Positions 11,323 to 56,411 of a stretch of 64,000 nt of DNA are shown in pieces. Numbering within the stretch: position 1 is the first letter of the stretch; each line of letters starts with the position of its first letter. Both the position numbers and the translations under genes were made by a program. This DNA comes from an uncultured Thermoleophilaceae bacterium. GTDB lineage: Bacteria; Actinomycetota; Thermoleophilia; Solirubrobacterales; Thermoleophilaceae. Location: NCBI GenBank assembly GCA_963715995.1, contig OY970283.1, positions 2,866,411 to 2,930,410 on the forward strand, read 5' to 3'. Under the pieces are notes generated by a model that was given only the letters and a program-made list of their open reading frames with translations, was not told where the DNA came from and made no database searches.

Positions 11323-12642
11323 ATGCGGCGGCGGCCAACTCCCGGGCTCATGCTGCTCGGGGTCGTGCTGCTCGGCGCCCTGGCGCTGCGGCTCGTCGCG
11401 ATCGGCGACCCGCTGTCGAACGACGAGGGCTACACCTGGGTCGTCACCTCGGCGCACGCGCCGGGCCTGCTGCTGGACCGCCTGGCGGCCTACGAGAACA
11501 CGCCGCCCCTCTACTACCTGCTCACGTGGCCGCTGCCGGACGCCGGCGTTGCGTGGCTGCGGATCGTCGCGGTGCTGGCCGGGACGGGTTGCGTGGCCGC
11601 GGTCTGGTGGGTCGCGCAGGTCACACGATCGACATTTGCGACGCATAGCGTCGTCGATGTCGATCGCGTGGCGATCTTCGCCGCCGCGGCACTCGCGGTC
11701 GCGCCGTTTGCGGTCTCGTACTCCGACTACGCGCGCGGCTTCGTGCTGGCCGATCTGGCGCTGGTGGTGGCGCTCGGGGCGGCGCTTCGCGAGCGCTGGT
11801 GGCTGTACGCGCTGGCGGCGACGGTGGCGCTCTACAGCGAGTACGACAGCGCTCTGTTCCTGATCGCGCTGGCGCTTGCGGTCGGGTGGCGCCGGCGCGC
11901 CGTCGCGCTTCGGGTGCTTGCGCCGATCGCGGCCCTTGCGCTGTGGCTGCCGGAGGCGCTCCGCGACAGCGCCACCAAGGTGTCACCCACGTATCCGGCC
12001 CCGAGCTCGGCGAGCCTGCGTGACACGCTCGTACGGCTGACGTTCGGCGAGCACGGGACCGCCCACGCCACCAGCGTCCGCTGGCTCCAGCTCCTCGTGG
12101 TCGCAGCAGTTTGCGCATGGGCATACACAAGGGCTCCGAAGGTGCTCGCGACATTGGCGGGCGGCACGCTCGCGCTCCATGCGGTCACGGCCTGGATCGG
12201 GCCGGACGTCTTCGCCCCCCGCTACCTGACCGAGCTGATCCCGCTCACGGCGCTCACCCTCGGTTACGCGCTCGCCGGCCTGCGCGCGCGCGAGCTGCGG
12301 GTGGCAGCGGCGGTTGCGATCGCGGTGCTCGGCGCCGGCGTGGCCGTCAGGCGCACGGGCGGGAGCGACGAGCCGGACGGGGCGCGGGTCGCACACGAGG
12401 TCGCACCGCTTGCGCGCGGCCGCGTCGTGCTGACCAACAGCGCGGTCGTGGACTACTACCTGCGCGACCTCCACCCGCGCCTCGACCGCCCGTTCGGGCT
12501 CGGGCCGGGGCTCGAGGCAGGCTGCGCAGGCCGCTGCCTGATCATCGACGACGCGCGCGTGGCCGGCGGCCCGCGGCGCGGCCCCGGGCCGTCACGGCAC
12601 TACGGGCCGATCTACGTGCGGGTGCTACCGGGAGCTACTTGA
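11323..12642 (+). CDS. polytopic membrane glycosyltransferase, GT-C fold (ArnT/PMT/GT39-like)
   Basis: N-terminus [29 protein letters not shown]...[10 protein letters not shown] is typical of 4-amino-arabinose/mannosyl transferase-like enzymes, with about 10 TM segments. Start is ATG 11287, 11311 or 11323. Confidence 0.55.
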
Positions 12643-25807: not shown

Positions 25808-26942
25808 ATGAACTTCGACCTCACAGACGAGCAGAAGAACATCCAGCGCCTGGCGCGCGACTTCGCGCAGGGGGAGGTGAAGCCCGTGGCCGAGGAGCTC
25901 GACCGCACGAAGAGCTTCCCCTACGAGATCGTCGCGAAGCTGGCCGAGCTGGGGCTGATGGGGATGCCGTTCCCCGAGGAGTACGGCGGCGCCGGCGCCG
26001 ACAACCTCTCCTACGCGCTCGCGCTCGAGGAGCTCGGGCGGATCGACTCGTCGGTGGCGATCACGGTCGCCGCCCACACCTCGCTCGGCACCTGGCCGAT
26101 CTACGCGTTCGGCGCCGACGACCAGAAGCGCGAGCTGCTGCCGGCGCTCTGCGCGGGCGAGCGGCTCTGGAGCTTCGGCCTGACCGAGCCGGAGGCCGGC
26201 TCCGACGCCGGCAACACGCGCACAACGGCCAAGCTCGAGGACGGCGACTGGGTGATCGACGGGGCCAAGCAGTTCATCACCAACGCCGGGACCGACATCT
26301 CCGGCGGCGTGACGATCACGGCGCGCACGGGCGACGGCGAGATCTTCGAACATCATCGTCCCGAAGGACACGCCCGGCTACGAGGTCGGCGAGCCGTATC
26401 GCAAGATGGGCTGGAACGCATCGGACACGCGGCCGCTCGCGTTCGATGGGGCGCGCGTGCCCGAGGAGAACCTGCTCGGCCCGCGCGGCATGGGTTTCAA
26501 GCAGTTCCTCCAGACGCTCGACGGCGGCCGTATCGGCGTGGCCGCGATGAGCGTCGGCCTTGCGCAGGGAGCGCTCGATGAGGCGCTGTCCTACGCCAAG
26601 GAGCGGCGGGCCTTCGGCCAGCCGATCGCGAAGTTCCAGGCGATCCAGATGAAGCTGGCCGACATGTCGACCGAGATCGAGGCGGCGCGGATGCTGACCT
26701 ACCACGCGGCATGGCTGAAGGACCAGGGGCGCAACTTCACGCTGACCGCCGCGCACGCGAAGCTCAAGTCCGGGCGACTGGCTGTGCGCGCGACCGAGGA
26801 GGCGGTGCAGATCCACGGCGGTTACGGCTACATCGAGGAGTACCCGGTGTGCCGCTTCTACCGCGACGCGAAGATCCTGACGATCGGCGAGGGCACCGAC
26901 GAGGTGCAGCAGATGGTGATCGCACGGGCGCTCGGCGCCTGA
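25808..26942 (+). pseudogene. acyl-CoA dehydrogenase with a +1 nt frame interruption near 26345
   Basis: The N-part (MNFDLTDEQ...GLTEPEAGSDAG...TARTGDGEI) is in the frame of ORF 25772..26581. The C-part (SNIIVPKDTPGYEVGEPYRKMGWNASDT...QIHGGYGYIEEYP...IGEGT) is in the +1 frame (ORF 26406..26942). Confidence 0.85.
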
Positions 26943-28357: not shown

Positions 28358-30178
28358 GTGCCCCTTCGCACGCTCACATTCCTAACGGCACTGGTCCTCG
28401 CCCTCGGCGCGGCTGCTCCTGCCATGGCCGCGGGCAAGCCGTGGTACCAGGACGGGCCCGGCGGGCGCATCCTGCTCGGCGGCAGCTGGCTCTACCGCGC
28501 GGACCCGGCCGACCAGGGCGTGGCCGGCGGCTGGGCAGCGCAGACAGACACGGTTGGCTGGTCGGCCACAACCGTGCCGAACGCCTGGAACGCGGGCGAC
28601 GACTCGGCCGCGAGCATGGCCGGCAGCGTCGGCTGGTACCGGCGTGATTTCACGGTCCCGGCGAAGCCGGCCGGCGCGAGCTGGATCGTCCGCTTCGAGT
28701 CCGTCAACTACTACGCGACGGTGTTCCTGAACGGCCGCCAGATCGGCCAGCACGAGGCGGCCTCGATCCCGTTCGACATCCCGCTGGCCGATCTCCAGCC
28801 AGGCGTCAACCACCTTGTCATCCGCGTGGACAGCCGCCGTGACCGCAACAGCCTGCCCCCAGGCCCGACCGGCGGCTGGTTCAACTACGGCGGGATCCTG
28901 CGCGAGGTCTACCTGCGCCCCGTGACGGGGGTCGACATCTCGGAGCTGCTCACGCGGCCGATCGGCGCAGACAGGCTGCTGGTGCGAGCGACGATCACCA
29001 ACCCGGACGGCCGCCTGCGAGCCGCGCGGGTGAATGCGCTGGTGGCAGGCCTGCCGGTGTCGCTCGGCACCGTGCGCGTGGGCGCCGGGGCGAGCCGCTC
29101 GCTGTCGAAGACCGTCACGGTCAGCAACGTGCGCGAGTGGGCGCCGCGCTCGCCGTCGCTGTTCGAGGTCACGGCGGTTGCCTCGGCCAAAGGCAAGACG
29201 CTTGCCACCTACACGGTCCATACCGGGCTGCGCACCCTCGCAATCCGCGGCGACGGCCGCATGACGATGAACGGCCTGGCGCTGAACCTGCGCGGCGCGG
29301 CCATGCACGAGCAGACGCCCGCGCGCGGCGCGGCGCTGCTGCCGGCCGACCACGCGCGCCAGATCAAGCTCCTCGAGAGCGCCGGCGCCGACCTGACGCG
29401 CGTCCACTACCCACTGTCGGAGGACTTCCTCGAGCGCGCCGACCGCGCCGGGATCGCGGTCTGGGAGGAGATCCCCTTCTACCAGCTGTCCGAATCGGCG
29501 ATGCGCGACCCGCTCGTGCGCCAGAAGGGGCTGGACTACCTTGCGGCCGCCATCAAGCGCGACGAGAATCATCCGTCGGTGATCGCCTGGAGCATCGGCA
29601 ACGAGCTGCCGGCCACACCGGGGCGCGGGCAGAAGGCGTACATCCGCGACGCGGTCGCGCTCGCGCACCGGCTCGACCCGACGCGCCCGGTGGCGCTGGC
29701 GCTGGCCGGCTACCCCGTGAAGAACTACCTGCCGGCCTACGCGCCGCTCGACGCGCTCGGGATCAACGACTACTTCGGCTGGTACCCGGGCCCGACCGGG
29801 CAGATCGAGAACCGGGCGGCGCTCGGGCAGTTCCTCGACCGCGCCCATGCGAACTACCCGCGGAAGGCCTTGTTCGTGACGGAGTTCGGCGCCGAGGCCA
29901 ACCGCGCCGGGCCGCGCGACGAGAAGGGCACCTACGACTACCAGAAGGAGTTCATGCGCTTCCACCTGGCCACCTACGCGAAGCGCCCGTGGCTGAACGG
30001 GGCGATCGTGTGGACGCTCCAGGACTTCAAGGTGCGTCCCGACTGGACCGGCGGCAACCCGCAGCCGGACGCGCCCTGGCTGCGCAAGGGGCTGCTCGAC
30101 CAGAACGGCAGCCCGAAGCCTGCCTACGCCCCGACGGCGCGCACCTTCAAGCGCGCGAAGCCGCTGGTGGCGCCGTGA
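28358..30178 (+). CDS. secreted glycoside hydrolase family 2
   Basis: Signal peptide ending APAMAAG. NHPSVIAWSIGNE (acid/base region) and LFVTEFGAE (nucleophile region) are typical of GH2. Confidence 0.8.
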   Translation: MPLRTLTFLTALVLALGAAAPAMAAGKPWYQDGPGGRILLGGSWLYRADPADQGVAGGWAAQTDTVGWSATTVPNAWNAGDDSAASMAGSVGWYRRDFTVPAKPAGASWIVRFESVNYYATVFLNGRQIGQHEAASIPFDIPLADLQPGVNHLVIRVDSRRDRNSLPPGPTGGWFNYGGILREVYLRPVTGVDISELLTRPIGADRLLVRATITNPDGRLRAARVNALVAGLPVSLGTVRVGAGASRSLSKTVTVSNVREWAPRSPSLFEVTAVASAKGKTLATYTVHTGLRTLAIRGDGRMTMNGLALNLRGAAMHEQTPARGAALLPADHARQIKLLESAGADLTRVHYPLSEDFLERADRAGIAVWEEIPFYQLSESAMRDPLVRQKGLDYLAAAIKRDENHPSVIAWSIGNELPATPGRGQKAYIRDAVALAHRLDPTRPVALALAGYPVKNYLPAYAPLDALGINDYFGWYPGPTGQIENRAALGQFLDRAHANYPRKALFVTEFGAEANRAGPRDEKGTYDYQKEFMRFHLATYAKRPWLNGAIVWTLQDFKVRPDWTGGNPQPDAPWLRKGLLDQNGSPKPAYAPTARTFKRAKPLVAP

Positions 30179-31164
30179 GGCAGCGCATCGCCGCGGCGAC
30201 ACTCGCCCTCGCGGCGCTGCTCGCCGCGACCGCCGTCGCGGCGCCGCCCGCGCGCGTGACGATCGTGGCCGTCTTCGATCCCATCACCTACGGCGAGAAC
30301 GCCTTCGTGAACGGGCAGCTCGTCGACGATGGACAAGCGGGGCAGCCGGTCGCCCTCGAGCAGTCGCCTCCCCCCTACACCGACTGGGCGCCCGTGGCGC
30401 AGACCACGAGCGACGCCCAGGGCTACTACAGCTTCAAGCTGCATCCAAGCCAGACGATGCAGTACCGCACGAGCTCGCAGGGAACCCCGAGCGAGAAGAC
30501 CGTCCAGGTGAACCTGGCGCCGCGGATCGCGTTCAGCGCGGCGGCGGCCGGCAAGTCGAGCGTGCGCTTCAGCGGCACCTTCGGCCCGGCACTGCTCGGC
30601 CAGAGCGTCGCGATCCAGCGACGCGATTCGCACGGCGCGTGGACCACGATCGCCACGGCCACCCTGCGCAAGGGCGCGACTTTCGGCGGCCGCCTGCGCG
30701 CACGCCACACGATCACGCTGCGCGCGTTCTTCGCAGGCGACGTCGCACACCTGCCCGGCGCGAGCCCGGCCGCGACCGTCGCGCGGGGCAGCGCGCCGAC
30801 GAAGGCGGCGCGGGCGGCGGCGACGAGGGCTGCACGCGCCGCGGCGGCGAGTTGCCGCGCGCCACGCGTGACGAAGGTGGTCGCGACACCGCAGACGCTG
30901 CGGGCCGGAAAGAAGCTGAAGCTGCGCGTGACGGCAGCAATGCCGAGCGGGCGCATCTACGCACTCGATGTCCGCTGGGGCACGGCAGGCCAGCGCGACC
31001 ACTTCACGTTCGCGCCGGCAGCACGCAGGCCGACGTTGAGCAGCGACTTCTTCCACGTCTACGACGACGCCGGGAGCTACACCGTCACCGTCAGGGCGTA
31101 TGGACGTGCAGGCCGCTGCAAGCGAAGCTCGCCACCGCTGCGGAGGACGCTGCGGGTGGCGTAG
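30175..31164 (+). CDS. secreted protein with C-terminal PKD-like domain
   Basis: GTG 30175 (GTGA overlap with the GH2 stop). Signal peptide AALLAATAVAAPPA. The C-terminal FFHVYDDAGSYTVTVRAYG is a PKD-type motif. Confidence 0.55.
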   Translation: MRQRIAAATLALAALLAATAVAAPPARVTIVAVFDPITYGENAFVNGQLVDDGQAGQPVALEQSPPPYTDWAPVAQTTSDAQGYYSFKLHPSQTMQYRTSSQGTPSEKTVQVNLAPRIAFSAAAAGKSSVRFSGTFGPALLGQSVAIQRRDSHGAWTTIATATLRKGATFGGRLRARHTITLRAFFAGDVAHLPGASPAATVARGSAPTKAARAAATRAARAAAASCRAPRVTKVVATPQTLRAGKKLKLRVTAAMPSGRIYALDVRWGTAGQRDHFTFAPAARRPTLSSDFFHVYDDAGSYTVTVRAYGRAGRCKRSSPPLRRTLRVA

Positions 31165-31433
31165 GGCCGCGGCGCCGTGGGTCAGGGCTGCGGCGACGCG
31201 TTTCCGCGGAAACTACCCCAGGGCGGGGACATGGCGGTGCTTTCGGGTGGCGCTTTCGGGTCGCGGTGCGCTCTCCGCCCACGTGTCAGGGCTCGGGCGG
31301 CGTGGTTCGCGAGCACCGACCCTCCGTTGGGCAACCAAGAGGGATCGGTGCTCGCTCGCGAAGCCGCTTTTGGTCTCGCTGTGATCAGTTGTGGTCGCGT
31401 GGCGGACCTGAGTGACCACAGCGGCTCGGGTTT

Positions 31434-31557
31434 CGGGAGCAACCGTCAATTGGTGTCGCATAGCGACAGTTATTGACGGTTGCGGCGCGATCGAGGGGAG
31501 CAACGTTCAATTCTTCCCGCATAGCGGGAACTATTGAACGAAGCGAGCGTTCGAGGG
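31434..31557. repeat. two tandem ~62-nt units, each a 37-45 nt hairpin of identical architecture
   Basis: 31439-31483 is GCAACCGTCAAT-TGG-TGTCGC-ATA-GCGACA-GTT-ATTGACGGTTGC. 31504-31540 is CGTTCAAT-TCT-TCCCGC-ATA-GCGGGA-ACT-ATTGAACG. Confidence 0.8.
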
Positions 31558-31642
31558 ACGAAGCGGCCGGCGCGAGAGCGCAAGCGCCACTCCAGCCACC
31601 CCTTGGCCGAGGCAGTTTCCGAACCGCAGCGAGGGGACGGCC

Positions 31643-31742
31643 GGCGGCAGAGCGGGAAGGCGGGCGGCAGGGCGGGGCGGGCGGCGGCAGGGCGGGGCGG
31701 CTGGCGGCAGGGCGGGACGGCTGGCGGCAGAACGGGGCCGAC
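31643..31742. repeat. 5 x 20-bp G-rich tandem repeat (GGCGGCAG-N12)
   Basis: GGCGGCAG recurs at 31643, 31663, 31683, 31703 and 31723. The + strand meets the G3+N1-7 x4 quadruplex pattern. The - strand is strongly C>G. Confidence 0.8.
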
Positions 31743-31783
31743 GGATAGCAGAACGGCGGCAGCGCACACGCGCCGCCACACCC

Positions 31784-32734
31784 CTACACAGCGTCGTCCA
31801 GCAACCGCTGCGCCGCACTGGCCGGATCCAGGCGCCGCGCCACGACCTCGTCGAGCAGTTCCTGGAGCTGCTCGTCGCCGCGCACCGACTCCTCGAGCCG
31901 GCGCCTCAGCCTGACGGTCGCCAGCTCCATCACCTCGTTGCGCAAGTTGCGCCGCCGACGCTCGTCGAGCGTCCCCTCGGCCTCGATGTGCTCGCGGTGC
32001 TGGGCGATTCGCTCGGCCAGCTCCTCGATCCCCTCCCCTGCCGACGCCTTCGTACGCACGATCGGCACGCGCCAGCTGGTCTTCGGGCCGAGCGACAGCA
32101 CGCCGCGGATCTCGCGGACCATCGTGTCGGTGAGCGGATGCTCGGCCTTGTTGACGACGATCACGTCCGGGATCTCCATGACCCCGGCCTTGAGCGCCTG
32201 GATCGAGTCGCCGGAGCCGGGCATCAGCGCCAGCACGACCGTGTCGGCGTGATCGATGATGTCCACCTCGGCCTGGCCGACGCCGACCGTCTCCAGATAG
32301 ACCTCGTCCTTGCCGGACGCGTCCATGAGGAGCGCCGCCTGGAGCGTTGCCTCGCTCAGACCGCCGAGCGATCCGCGGCTGGCCATCGATCGGATGAAGA
32401 CGCCCGGGTCCAGGAAGTGCTCTGTCAACCGGATCCGGTCGCCCAGCAGCGCGCCCTGGGTGAACGGGGACGACGGGTCGATCGACAGGACCGCCACGTC
32501 GCGGTCGCGCTCGCGCGCGTCCGCCACCAGGCGGCCAATGATCGTCGACTTGCCCACCCCCGGCGGCCCGGTGAAGCCGATGACGGCCGCCTTTCCGGTC
32601 TTCGGATAGACCTGCCTGACGAGCTCCCAGCCCTCGGGGTCGTCGTCCTCGACCAGCGAGATCGCCCGCGCCAGCGCCCGCTTGTCGCCCGCAAGCAGCG
32701 GCCCGACGAGCTCGGATGCGGTCCGGCGAGGCAT
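31784..32734 (-). CDS. meaB: methylmalonyl-CoA-mutase-associated GTPase (MeaB/ArgK family)
   Basis: P-loop GFTGPPGVGKST and VVNKAEHP (NKxD-like). ATG 32734; the upstream 66 codons of the track ORF are antisense to csbD. Confidence 0.85.
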   Translation of the reverse strand: MPRRTASELVGPLLAGDKRALARAISLVEDDDPEGWELVRQVYPKTGKAAVIGFTGPPGVGKSTIIGRLVADARERDRDVAVLSIDPSSPFTQGALLGDRIRLTEHFLDPGVFIRSMASRGSLGGLSEATLQAALLMDASGKDEVYLETVGVGQAEVDIIDHADTVVLALMPGSGDSIQALKAGVMEIPDVIVVNKAEHPLTDTMVREIRGVLSLGPKTSWRVPIVRTKASAGEGIEELAERIAQHREHIEAEGTLDERRRRNLRNEVMELATVRLRRRLEESVRGDEQLQELLDEVVARRLDPASAAQRLLDDAV

Positions 32735-32765: not shown

Positions 32766-32939
32766 ATGGGTGATGGAGCAGTAGACAACGCAAAGGGCAA
32801 ACTCAAAGAAGCAGCGGGCGACCTGACCGACGACAAGGACCTCAAGAACGAGGGCAAGGTCGACAAGGCATCAGGCACCGTGAAGGACAAGGTCGGAGAT
32901 GCAGCCGACGCCGCGAAGGACGTAGTCGGCAAGGACTAG
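32766..32939 (+). CDS. csbD: CsbD-family general stress protein (57 aa)
   Basis: Not in ORF track (<60 aa). My translation is MGDGAVDNAKGKLKEAAGDLTDDKDLKNEGKVDKASGTVKDKVGDAADAAKDVVGKD*, the characteristic CsbD repeat pattern. Confidence 0.8.
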   Translation: MGDGAVDNAKGKLKEAAGDLTDDKDLKNEGKVDKASGTVKDKVGDAADAAKDVVGKD

Positions 32940-44077: not shown

Positions 44078-44112
44078 GCAAGCGTTTGTAACAAAGCGGG
44101 GCCGAACTGCAC

Positions 44113-44296
44113 GGTTTCCGTCGGCTTGCCCTGGCGCCTCGATGTGGAAACTGCGGCGGCCAAGGCGTGGCTGAAGCGGCGCTTGCGCTCGTCGCGCGGC
44201 GTTTTGGTCGCTCCACCTGCGCCGACTGTGACGTTAACCCCCGATAGCGCGCATAACTTCACAGTCACCACCAAAAGCGGCAGCTAGACCGAGCAC
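44113..44296. repeat. composite intergenic repeat, copy C (inverted, truncated, no minisatellite)
   Basis: 44146-44187 equals the reverse complement of the copy A right module (37/42). Hairpin 44224-44266. 44270-44281 ACCAAAAGCGGC equals the reverse complement of 31364-31375. Confidence 0.65.
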
Positions 44297-44328
44297 AGAG
44301 CCGCTCGAGCGATGACCCGAGCGCTGCC

Positions 44329-52445: not shown

Positions 52446-52997
52446 TGGGTGGCGCGCTCGGGCAGGGCTTCCGACGTGTTAGGGCTCAGGCGGCGTGGTT
52501 CGCGAGCACCGACCCTCCGTTGGGCAACTAAGAGGGATCGGTGCTCGCTCGCGAAGCCGCTGTTGGTCTCGCTGTCTCGGTTCGCTCGTGGCGCCGCGCT
52601 TCTGGTCGCGAGTTTCACGTTAAGCCGCGTATATCGGCTCAATGTGAAACTCGGGCTTCGAGTGGCAGGTTGACCACGCGGTTCGCGGGTGAAGGTGCCA
52701 CTCGGGCATCGAGTGTGACCTCGACCACGCTATACGTGGTTAACGTCACAGTCGCCGGTCAGTGAGCGCGTTTGCGCGGGTTCGAAGGCCGGCGGGGGCG
52801 AGATGGCCGGCGAGAGAACGCAAGCGCCAGACCAGCCACCCCTTGGCCGAAGCAGTTTCCAAACCGCGGTGCCAGAGCGGGGGGCGGAGAGCGGCGAGGG
52901 GACGGCCGGCGGAGAGCGGCGAGGGGCCGGCGGGCGGCAGAGCGCCGAGGGGACGGCTGGCGGCAGAACGGGACGGCCGGCGGAGAGCAGCGACGAG
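52446..52997. repeat. composite intergenic repeat, copy B
   Basis: Same module order and orientation as copy A. Left module 52446-52578 includes a 47-nt hairpin at 52502-52548. Hairpins at 52610-52652, 52659-52704 and 52714-52750. Right module 52805-52868. Minisatellite 52883-52997. Confidence 0.8.
52883..52997. repeat. G-rich tandem repeat, units of 25/25/26/20/~19 bp (GGCGG(A/C)(G/A)AG...)
   Basis: Units start at 52883, 52908, 52933, 52959 and 52979. Related to, but with a different period from, the copy A minisatellite. It ends 6 nt from the AIM24 stop codon. Confidence 0.75.
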
Positions 52998-53002
52998 CCG
53001 AG

Positions 53003-53722
53003 CTACCCGCCCAAGCTCTTCAGCAACCCGCCCGCGCCGCCGCCGCCGCCCATCGGCGACACGCTCACGCGGCCTTCGCTCGGCTGCACGAGCACCCAGC
53101 CCGTCCCTTCGAACGCGACCTGGATCGACTCGCCCGAGCCGCGGCCTATCAGCGTCTTCACGTTGATGTCGGTCTTCATCGAGGTGCGCACCCCTGACGA
53201 CCACGTGATCGCTGCCTGCGGATCGGCGAACGTCGGCGCGTCGCCCACGTCCAGGAGCACCGGCGGCCCGTCCGAGAGCAGCGCCACGAAACCGGTTCCC
53301 TTCAGCGAGACGTTGAAGAGGCCGCCCGTCAGCAGGCCGCCGGCCCCCTCCACGCGCGTGATGTCCCAGTCGATGCCGGCGTCGAACGCCAGCAGGTTCG
53401 CCCCGTTGCACGTGATCTGGTCGTCGTCCAGGCGCAGGATGTGGATCTCCTGCGCCTGCTCGGCCAGGAACAGCTCGCCCGACCCGGTGCACTTCATGAA
53501 CTTCACGTCCTCGCCCGTGGTCATCTTCTTCACGAGCCTGGCCATCCCGCCTGCGCCGGCGTGCTCGAACTTGACCTCGCCCTGGTAGGCGACCATCGAG
53601 CCGAGCTTGGCCTGGATCGTGACGTCGCGCAGCGAGACCTTGAGCAGCTTCGAGTTCTGGAGCGCGAACGACTCCGTCGACTGGGTCTCGGCGAATTGCT
53701 GGAGCGCCGCTTCCGCAGGCAT
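53003..53722 (-). CDS. AIM24 (DUF124) family protein
   Basis: GSMVAYQGEVKFEH...FMKCTGSGELFLA...WSSGV...G-rich tail, the typical AIM24 beta-rich pattern. Confidence 0.7.
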   Translation of the reverse strand: MPAEAALQQFAETQSTESFALQNSKLLKVSLRDVTIQAKLGSMVAYQGEVKFEHAGAGGMARLVKKMTTGEDVKFMKCTGSGELFLAEQAQEIHILRLDDDQITCNGANLLAFDAGIDWDITRVEGAGGLLTGGLFNVSLKGTGFVALLSDGPPVLLDVGDAPTFADPQAAITWSSGVRTSMKTDINVKTLIGRGSGESIQVAFEGTGWVLVQPSEGRVSVSPMGGGGGAGGLLKSLGG

Positions 53723-56006: not shown

Positions 56007-56249
56007 GTAGTTACTCGTCGCTCCTTGATGCAGTCAGCGGTCGCGCAAGGCTTCCGGGCCAGAACCTCGACGGAGGCGGGGCCTCCCCGAAAGCCTATAC
56101 AGCGGTGTCTGCGATTCGGAACATCCTGTTCCCGTTGAGAACGAACGCCCAGATGGCCGGCAGGCCTGCCTACCCCTGTGAGCACATCGTTCAAACTCGA
56201 ACATTCAACGAGGGCAGAGGACCGTTTCTTCGGTGATCGCTATATTCCT

Positions 56250-56398
56250 CGGCGCCTAAGCACTGGGGACGGTCCCAGAGCACGGGGGAACCATTGCGGT
56301 CTGTGGCCTGCCAGCCTGGACCGCGGGGGCGAATCGAGCGCATTGCCGCGCTCGTAGGGACCTTGGTCCCGAGCCCGACAGCTCACCTCGTCGGCGCC
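56250..56398 (+). promoter_or_regulatory. c-di-AMP riboswitch (ydaO-yuaA class) in the 5' leader of the RlpA-like gene
   Basis: P1 CGGCGCC (56250) pairs with GGCGCCG (56392). Conserved blocks are GAGCACGGGGGAACCA, CGCGGGGGCGAATC and GUAGGGA...CCCGAGCCCGACAGCUCACCUCGUCGGCG. They match the B. subtilis ydaO blocks as I recall them. Confidence 0.75.
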
Positions 56399-56411
56399 GA
56401 TTCAACACAAC

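Follow-up and report, generated by a model that had tools for sequence, protein, structure and literature searches.

Tandem hairpins in a Thermoleophilaceae genome are part of a non-coding mosaic repeat and of a candidate REP/BOX-like family of palindromes

The 64,000-nt stretch of Thermoleophilaceae DNA analysed here, referred to as the window, has a G+C content of about 70%, and its genes are recognised by their third-position G+C content (GC3 of about 0.9). A 619-nt gap separates two convergent genes encoding a secreted PKD-like protein and a MeaB GTPase (Table 1). Most of this gap is occupied by one copy, copy A, of a mosaic repeat that includes an array of tandem hairpins. The next relatives of the MeaB protein after an identical entry are metagenomic or 'Thermoleophilaceae bacterium' proteins with 88-92% identity. 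A small CsbD-family gene upstream of MeaB (32766-32939, + strand) was missed by a simple gene finder and is called in syntenic loci. Further along the window, an acyl-CoA dehydrogenase gene (25808-26942, + strand) is split at around 26344-26349 relative to an intact orthologue of 377 residues (L005), representing either a pseudogene or a sequencing error. The split is a plain 1-nt frameshift, which rules out a module insertion as its cause.

Two neighbouring hairpins in the gap, described in an earlier note made from the DNA letters, are present with the coordinates and sequence given there and fold far beyond shuffled sequence. A repeat finder returned unit 1 as an inverted repeat at 31439-31459/31463-31483 (21-nt arms, 86% complementary) and unit 2 as one at 31504-31520/31524-31540 (17-nt arms, 88% complementary), each with a 3-nt ATA loop. 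The folding calculation proposed in the note gave -68.6 kcal/mol for the RNA of the + strand (31425-31565, z = -7.8) and -63.9 kcal/mol for that of the - strand (z = -9.3), with no shuffled sequence as stable in either case. As single-stranded DNA, unit 1 (module A1) folds with -20.0 kcal/mol (z = -9.7) and unit 2 (module A2) with -15.2 kcal/mol (z = -7.1). The proposal that the fold could form in RNA of either strand or in single-stranded DNA is consequently borne out by all of these calculations. Both units had been assigned a 3+3-nt internal loop and a 6-bp inner stem, which is correct for unit 1, while the RNA fold of unit 2 has a 2+2 loop and a 7-bp inner stem. When the units are compared in a 45-nt register with no gaps, both arms have changed at four pairs (C-G to G-C, G-C to T-A, G-C to C-G and T-A to C-G), in agreement with the compensatory stem changes claimed, and the two outermost pairs of unit 2 are broken.

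The motif GGGAGCAAC precedes each unit (31434 and 31495) and TCGAGGG follows each (31490 and 31551), giving a period of 61 nt. Tandem copying, suggested previously with a period of about 62 nt, is thus correct with a spacing of 61 nt, but the number of units is three instead of two, a degenerate third lying 61 nt upstream. The two hairpins therefore do not stand alone but form the second and third members of a row of three tandem 61-nt units, in each of which an imperfect palindrome of 45 nt is joined to a linker of 16 nt. The pattern TCAATTnnTnnCGCATAGCGnnAnnTATTGA, common to both hairpins, matches the window at these two places only, with 0.00 matches expected. When the window was scanned for 21-nt arms joined by 16 or more Watson-Crick pairs, 12 sites were found, compared with 1-5 in dinucleotide shuffles, and the four sites with at least 17 arm pairs are all members of the module family defined below.

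Table 1. Coordinates of the mosaic repeat copies, their parts, the in-gene module and the genes flanking copy A within the window
Feature	Position	Strand	Observations
Solo module in gene	11624-11668	+	in frame, 15 codons; in GT39-like membrane glycosyltransferase gene 11350-12642; covariance model R1, 54 bits
Flanking gene, secreted protein (PKD-like)	30175-31164	+	weak PKD and CarboxypepD_reg Pfam matches, below curated cut-offs; GC3 frame plot
Mosaic copy A, whole	31245-31744	+	left block, three hairpin units, right block, minisatellite; similarity to copy B begins at 31245/52447
Copy A left block, long hairpin	31297-31367	+	inverted repeat 31297-31322/31342-31367; apex TTGG-GCAA-CCAA at 31327-31338
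Module A0, degenerate, first unit of array A	31378-31422	+	R1 E = 3e-4, outside training set; DNA fold z = -2.1
Module A1 (unit 1)	31439-31483	+	12-bp stem, 3+3 internal loop, 6-bp stem, ATA loop
Module A2 (unit 2, 31504-31540)	31500-31544	+	inverted repeat; DNA fold z = -7.1
Copy A right block	31566-31628	+	CGCAAGCGCC..CAGCCACnCCTTGGCCGnnGCAGTTTCC; kept in all three copies; alignment A1 (not module A1) and blastn
Copy A G-rich minisatellite	31634-31744	+	20-nt unit, about 5 copies of GGGACGGCCGGCGGCAGRGC; tandem-repeat scan; related array at same end of copy B
Flanking gene, MeaB GTPase	31784-32734	-	Pfam PF03308, E = 3e-85; P0001 100% identical
Mosaic copy C, short	44100-44328	-	linker motif, one module (C1) at 44223-44267, right block at about 44128-44213
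Mosaic copy B, whole	52447-53000	+	resembles 31245-31744
Copy B left hairpin	52490-52560	+	
Copy B modules B1, B2, B3	52609-52653, 52659-52704, 52710-52754	+	period about 50 nt
Copy B right block	about 52800-52868	+	
Copy B minisatellite	52878-53000	+	

The hairpins form the variable central part of a non-coding mosaic repeat, of which the window has three copies (at about 31.2, 44.2 and 52.5 kb). The mosaic is organised as a left hairpin block, an array of modules, a right block and a G-rich minisatellite, and its copies measure about 230-550 bp, with the full copies A and B at about 500 bp. Conserved blocks surround three, three and one modules in copies A, B and C, respectively, and copy C lacks both the left hairpin and the minisatellite. 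By blastn, 31278-31382 and 52471-52575 are 95% identical over 105 nt, the right parts of A and B are 75% identical over 190 nt, and copy C is 79% identical to the right block of A over 80 nt.

The minisatellites of A and B have units of 20 to 25 nt and contain runs such as GGGCGGCAGGGCGGGGCGGGC, which could form G-quadruplexes on the + strand or represent a C-rich tract in the transcript of the upstream gene. That of B reaches the stop codon of the minus-strand AIM24 gene, and about 40 nt separate the A array from the MeaB stop codon (31784). Several smaller repeats are found around the left end of copy A. A perfect 14-nt palindrome, GTTTCCGCGGAAAC, lies at 31200-31213 between the stop codon of the PKD-like gene and the mosaic, and a 13-nt direct repeat, GCTTTCGGGTsGC, is present in two copies (31239-31265) that reach into the first 20 nt of the mosaic. 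CGGAAACTACC (31207-31217) is complementary to GGCAGTTTCCG in the right block (31611-31621). Positions 31247-31258 and 31579-31590 match as a 12-nt inverted repeat (92%) that is not terminal. No clear terminal inverted repeat or target-site duplication was seen, and comparison of the junctions at locus B revealed no clean duplication.

Comparison with related loci indicates that mosaic DNA was inserted at loci A and B, where relatives have empty sites. In six syntenic metagenomic loci the two genes that flank copy A overlap by a few bases, which implies that the whole 619 nt is lineage-specific. At locus B, the spacer between the AIM24 and HxlR genes is 577 nt long here compared with 32 nt in two contigs that encode an AIM24 protein with 94% identity. 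The mosaic is accordingly MITE-like in being small and non-coding, in having three copies and in being missing from relatives at A and B. Mosaics fill two of the largest intergenic gaps of this compact genome and part of a third. Two gaps are larger still; one of them contains a c-di-AMP riboswitch and the other is probably due to a gene start set too late. The riboswitch, of the ydaO/yuaA type (56243-56411, + strand; RF00379, 57.5 bits), is located in a 952-nt gap after a sigma-70 gene. Relative to their neighbours, the three mosaics are differently oriented. Copy A follows a gene of the same direction and faces a convergent one, B runs antisense to the genes on either side, and C has the direction of both its neighbours. 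All three adjoin at least one gene 3' end and none occupies a divergent promoter region.

Several analyses indicate that the mosaic is non-coding. ORFs in the elements have GC3 values of 0.57-0.74 compared with about 0.9 for real genes, and the values of 0.68-0.74 in the 619-nt gap together with the lack of any Pfam match rule out a protein-coding reading of that gap. The exceptions are two long ORFs of copy B that continue into the AIM24 gene on either strand (52803-53588 with GC3 0.91 and 52746-53492 with GC3 0.58). An ORF spanning the left block had no phmmer match among 1.8 billion representative proteins. Rfam searches of all three loci at gathering and permissive thresholds identified no family, the best scores being 9.6-15.5 bits against thresholds of 49-75. 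Neither a U-tract terminator nor a sigma-70-type promoter was found on either strand of 31000-31900, and a reading of the region as a terminator or promoter was ruled out by this lack of consensus sites.

Searches beyond the window, by exact pattern or blastn, found no copies of the left block, the right block or the hairpin pattern in public genome, metagenome, viral, plasmid and phage collections, so the mosaic is known from this 64-kb window alone. Metagenomes scanned with right-block and left-block patterns, a scan of viral sequences, and blastn searches of plasmid and phage collections yielded no matches. Among 185,579 species genomes, the exact hairpin-core pattern returned four matches (three in Escherichia and one in Parasphingorhabdus), which are not hairpins; the Escherichia inspection covered two of the loci.

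The 45-nt palindrome has a constant geometry. Positions 1-12 pair with 45-34, positions 13-15 and 31-33 form a mismatch zone, positions 16-21 pair with 30-25, and the arms are joined by a 3-nt A/T loop. The apex is most often CGC-ATA-GCG. A hairpin scan found a third CGC-ATA-GCG hairpin at 11622-11670, inside a gene, and showed the hairpins of copy B to be richer in A and T. A covariance model, R1, was built from ten module sequences and run over the window with filters off. Outside its training set it recovered B1 (E = 5e-7), A0 (table), B2 (E = 2e-3) and C1 (44223-44267, E = 0.16), and nothing else in the 64 kb scored under E = 0.1. The window consequently contains eight modules confined to mosaic loci A, B and C and the one in-gene site. 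The units of array A start at 31378, 31439 and 31500, with an exact spacing of 61 nt, and array B consists of three units spaced by about 50 nt.

Modules B1, B3 and C1 have the arm consensus CGAsTkTsACGTTAA in common, and GATCGACRT is common to the in-gene module and a hairpin in relatives. On the basis of these motifs, the modules are related in sequence and not in shape alone, A1 and A2 being the most divergent. The groups A1/A2, B1/B3/C1 and B2 have in common the layout and a weak arm consensus only and are not copies of one sequence. The family reaches beyond this genome, being found at the glycosyltransferase (GT39) site in related contigs and at a GH2/PKD-like site in L006 and L007. In these two, which represent a related metagenomic lineage (L006, 7655-7699; L007, 2363-2411), a family module (GAGATCGACGTTTGCCG...) is located at the junction of a GH2 and a PKD-like gene, where the window has none. 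The loop reads ATA in A1, A2, the in-gene module and the related loci L012, L014 and L015, and TAT in B1, B3, L013, L016 and L017. This mixture, found even at the same gene site, suggests insertion in both orientations or loop flipping.

The in-gene module provides a view of the palindrome at one position in many orthologues. The peptide that it encodes falls in an indel region among 118 homologues of the glycosyltransferase, where most have a loop of 29-33 residues and about 30, approximately a quarter, one of 35-49. Inserts of 2-20 residues occur in the same loop, have very different peptides and are palindromic at the codon level. The DNA of seven insert-bearing orthologues was obtained, and in every case the corresponding codons form a hairpin; R1 matches six strongly and does not detect the seventh (L016), which is degenerate. 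The apex of these hairpins is mostly CGC-ATA-GCG and the outer stems read GATCGACAT, CCAAAGAAC, GATTCACGTTG or AAAGTCACCTT. In a codon-level test that uses protein sequence only, insert-bearing homologues have 9-12, mostly 10-12, of 14 first and second codon positions complementary. The null is about 8, and the shortest insert-less forms of 29-30 residues mostly give 6-7. Homologues with a 33-residue loop and no long insert (e.g. P0125 and P0164; RALASERAAL) also exceed the null, which may be due to a shorter palindrome of ancestral origin or to a composition rich in Ala and Arg.

To analyse covariation we used an ungapped alignment (A4) of ten modules from five sites, namely A1, A2, B3, the in-gene module of the window and six of its orthologues, instead of a MAFFT alignment (A3) in which the register was shifted. 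Standard pairs are formed by 90% of the cells of A4 compared with 25-41% when the partner is slid by 1-3 columns. Variation affects both sides in 15 of the 18 pairs, and variation on one side only is almost absent. The covariation score for these ten modules is 0.754 against 0.183 in shuffles, a value reached by none of 500. The covariation analysis of homologous units that the earlier note had called for thus supports its central claim, and together with the codon-level test these results show that structure, not sequence, has been maintained over evolutionary time. The pairing is of a particular kind. In A4, G·U accounts for 2 of 162 paired cells. In a separate tally, the cells that are not Watson-Crick comprise 8 G·T and 9 A·C, favouring neither strand. 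Given the near absence of G·U, the lack of strand bias, the roughly equal folding of both strands and the folding of the modules as DNA, the pattern is probably better explained by a palindrome constrained as DNA than by an RNA fold under selection.

Compensatory changes can also arise where no RNA fold is under selection. Template switching during replication can create and repair stems in a single multi-base step and can keep palindromes in the absence of a function (PMC8794818). Such a process would yield compensation restricted to Watson-Crick pairs, as seen in the modules. The constant length, mismatch zone and apex go beyond what template switching alone would produce, and point to common descent and possibly to recognition of shape.

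These features bear on several other readings of the modules. An RNA-level element, either stem-loops transcribed at gene 3' ends (terminators without a U-tract or mRNA stabilisers) or a multi-copy small RNA, would also produce compensation through selection on the fold. It would fit the strong RNA folds of whole elements (z = -6.9 and -6.8), the GNRA-type GCAA loop capping the left hairpin, the sole difference between the left hairpins of A and B, which changes a G-C into a G·U pair on the + strand, and the placement of every mosaic copy beside a gene 3' end. We nevertheless regard this reading as unlikely, since the scarcity of G·U and the absence of strand bias described above speak against it, as do the differing orientations of A, B and C and the lack of a U-tract terminator, a sigma-70-type promoter and an Rfam match. 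In addition, copy C folds as RNA no better than shuffles (z = -1.3), and one module lies inside an ORF, where a terminator would be harmful. A double-stranded DNA operator, in which the palindromes would be bound by a dimeric regulator or a partition protein, accounts for the palindromic symmetry and is close to refuted, because the stem sequences differ almost wholly between modules, which excludes one sequence-specific binder, and because one module is inside a gene. Module B1 (52612-52650) does contain GTTTCAC and GTGAAAC, 25 nt apart, the two halves of a canonical parS site. These half-sites occur in B1 only and no intact parS is present in the window, so they are probably a coincidence. 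Chance, or a plain strain-specific variable-number tandem repeat free of structural constraint, would be compatible with the exact 61-nt tandem period and the lineage-specific region. This reading can be considered already refuted by the shuffle controls, by the reappearance of the 45-nt layout in other species as well as at unrelated loci, and by covariation.

A true REP or REPIN system would be one in which a RAYT (Y1 HUH) enzyme encoded elsewhere in the genome binds the imperfect hairpin in single-stranded DNA and moves the module. Hairpins recognised by IS200/IS605 TnpA and RAYT enzymes are imperfect palindromes with mismatches, and the modules resemble them in their imperfect palindromes with a constant mismatch zone and in keeping structure despite sequence change; their occurrence both between and within genes also matches that of REPs (PMC3733652). 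We consider this quite improbable for the modules, however. The GTAG or CGTC tag is found beside none of them (A0-A2, B1-B3, C1 and the in-gene module), they measure 45 nt compared with 20-40 nt for REPs, and their arrangement is direct and tandem, repeating every 61 nt or about every 50 nt, where REPs would form inverted doublets. No Y1 enzyme, and no other transposase or integron integrase, was identified among the approximately 55 proteins of the window, and the diversity of stems in one genome is too great for one sequence-specific enzyme.

Several known systems resemble the mosaic or its modules in part. In layout the closest analogy is the BOX element of Streptococcus pneumoniae (boxA-boxB(n)-boxC), which has conserved ends and a variable count of tandem internal modules. 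The boxB module is about 45 nt long, the same size as the module described here. In contrast, boxB copies are near-identical while the modules have a common layout with little common stem sequence, BOX possesses terminal inverted repeats and target duplications that are not clear in the mosaic, and the mosaic carries a G-rich minisatellite tail, has no sequence relation to BOX and is found in another phylum. BOX elements are 67-637 bp in size, have predicted tight folds and are non-coding and dispersed (PMC3049150). REPs, defined by a conserved GTAG or CGTC tag, are found mostly downstream of genes between convergent or co-directional ORFs, sometimes inside genes, and in clusters with linkers (PMC3733652). 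The modules are similar to REP, REPIN and BIME sequences in being short imperfect palindromes placed 3' of genes in clusters with linkers, and occasionally inside a gene. They differ in their two-part stem, in their direct tandem arrangement as opposed to head-to-head dimers, in lacking the tag, in a much greater stem diversity per genome and in the lack of a RAYT gene in the window. The absence of a tag, of inverted doublets, of clear inverted repeats or duplications and of a transposase in the window, together with the diversity of the modules, leaves membership in the REP or BOX families unsupported.

Palindromic repeats inserted in frame within genes are known from RPE-4, RPE-6 and intragenic REPs (PMC3733652). 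The in-gene module is comparable to the Rickettsia palindromic elements (RPEs) as an in-frame palindrome in a coding gene that adds a peptide in a tolerant region. RPE-1 is 100-150 bp long; the insert here is 45 nt and differs further in that many orthologues carry it at the same codon positions with stems that are quite dissimilar, a situation that to our knowledge has not been described for RPEs. Finally, attC sites of integrons are imperfect palindromes whose identity lies in their shape and not in their sequence, and certain fixed positions in them stay unpaired. They act as folded single strands and are at least 57 nt long. The modules are likewise shape-defined with fixed unpaired positions, and may also act as folded single strands. 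Unlike attC sites, however, they are shorter than 57 nt, no cassettes lie between them and no integron integrase is encoded in the window. Assignment as attC sites was rejected, as the RYYYAAC and GTTRRRY core sites are lacking in most modules, with A1 matching 5 of 7 positions per side and the other modules lacking AAC/GTT ends.

Overall, we judge it somewhat probable that the tandem 61-nt units are the middle of a mosaic inserted in this lineage only, and that their palindrome represents a REP/BOX-like family of selfish DNA kept paired as a DNA hairpin. The best reading of the module family is that it occurs across Thermoleophilaceae and constitutes a REP/BOX-like palindromic family new to Thermoleophilia. 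The module would spread as DNA into intergenic spacers and tolerant protein loops and would be amplified locally in tandem. That its arms remain complementary would follow from the element acting, or being copied, as a single-stranded DNA hairpin. Complementarity could be kept by arm-to-arm template switching in replication, by a need for shape recognition, or by both. Points that weigh against this reading are the lack of a candidate mobilising enzyme in the window and the presence of only three mosaic copies and eight modules within 64 kb; the modules of one genome also differ far more than is usual for REP or boxB copies. Mosaic insertion may furthermore affect neighbouring transcripts, for example through strong stem-loops at the 3' ends of the MeaB gene and the PKD-like gene.

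The conserved apex, the fixed length of 45 nt and the fixed mismatch zone hint at some recogniser and are not predicted by neutral template switching alone. By analogy with integrase and attC, the module might be a shape-defined mobile cassette whose geometry is read by a putative single-stranded-DNA hairpin-binding enzyme of Thermoleophilia, a speculative idea to which we give a low probability. Such a cassette would insert repeatedly and in either orientation (ATA/TAT), into intergenic arrays as well as in frame into genes, and would represent a new type of REP-like system in a class from which none has been described.

For Proteobacteria and Firmicutes, small palindromic repeats have been well documented, and a full-text literature search on repetitive and palindromic sequence in Thermoleophilia yielded no paper. 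The mosaic repeat itself is ordinary biology; the unusual part is the set of orthologous in-frame hairpins with rewritten stems and fixed geometry. At one codon position, the stems of orthologues have been almost wholly rewritten while retaining length, mismatch zone, loop and Watson-Crick-only pairs. This constitutes an unusually clean natural test of how stems are maintained and bears on the choice between selection and template switching (PMC8794818), and flags a possible recogniser of hairpin shape. For the annotation of these genomes, the modules should be masked in covariation searches for structured RNAs. For the organism, the elements account for the largest intergenic gaps that would otherwise lack an explanation in this compact genome, and their modules add 15-residue inserts to proteins.
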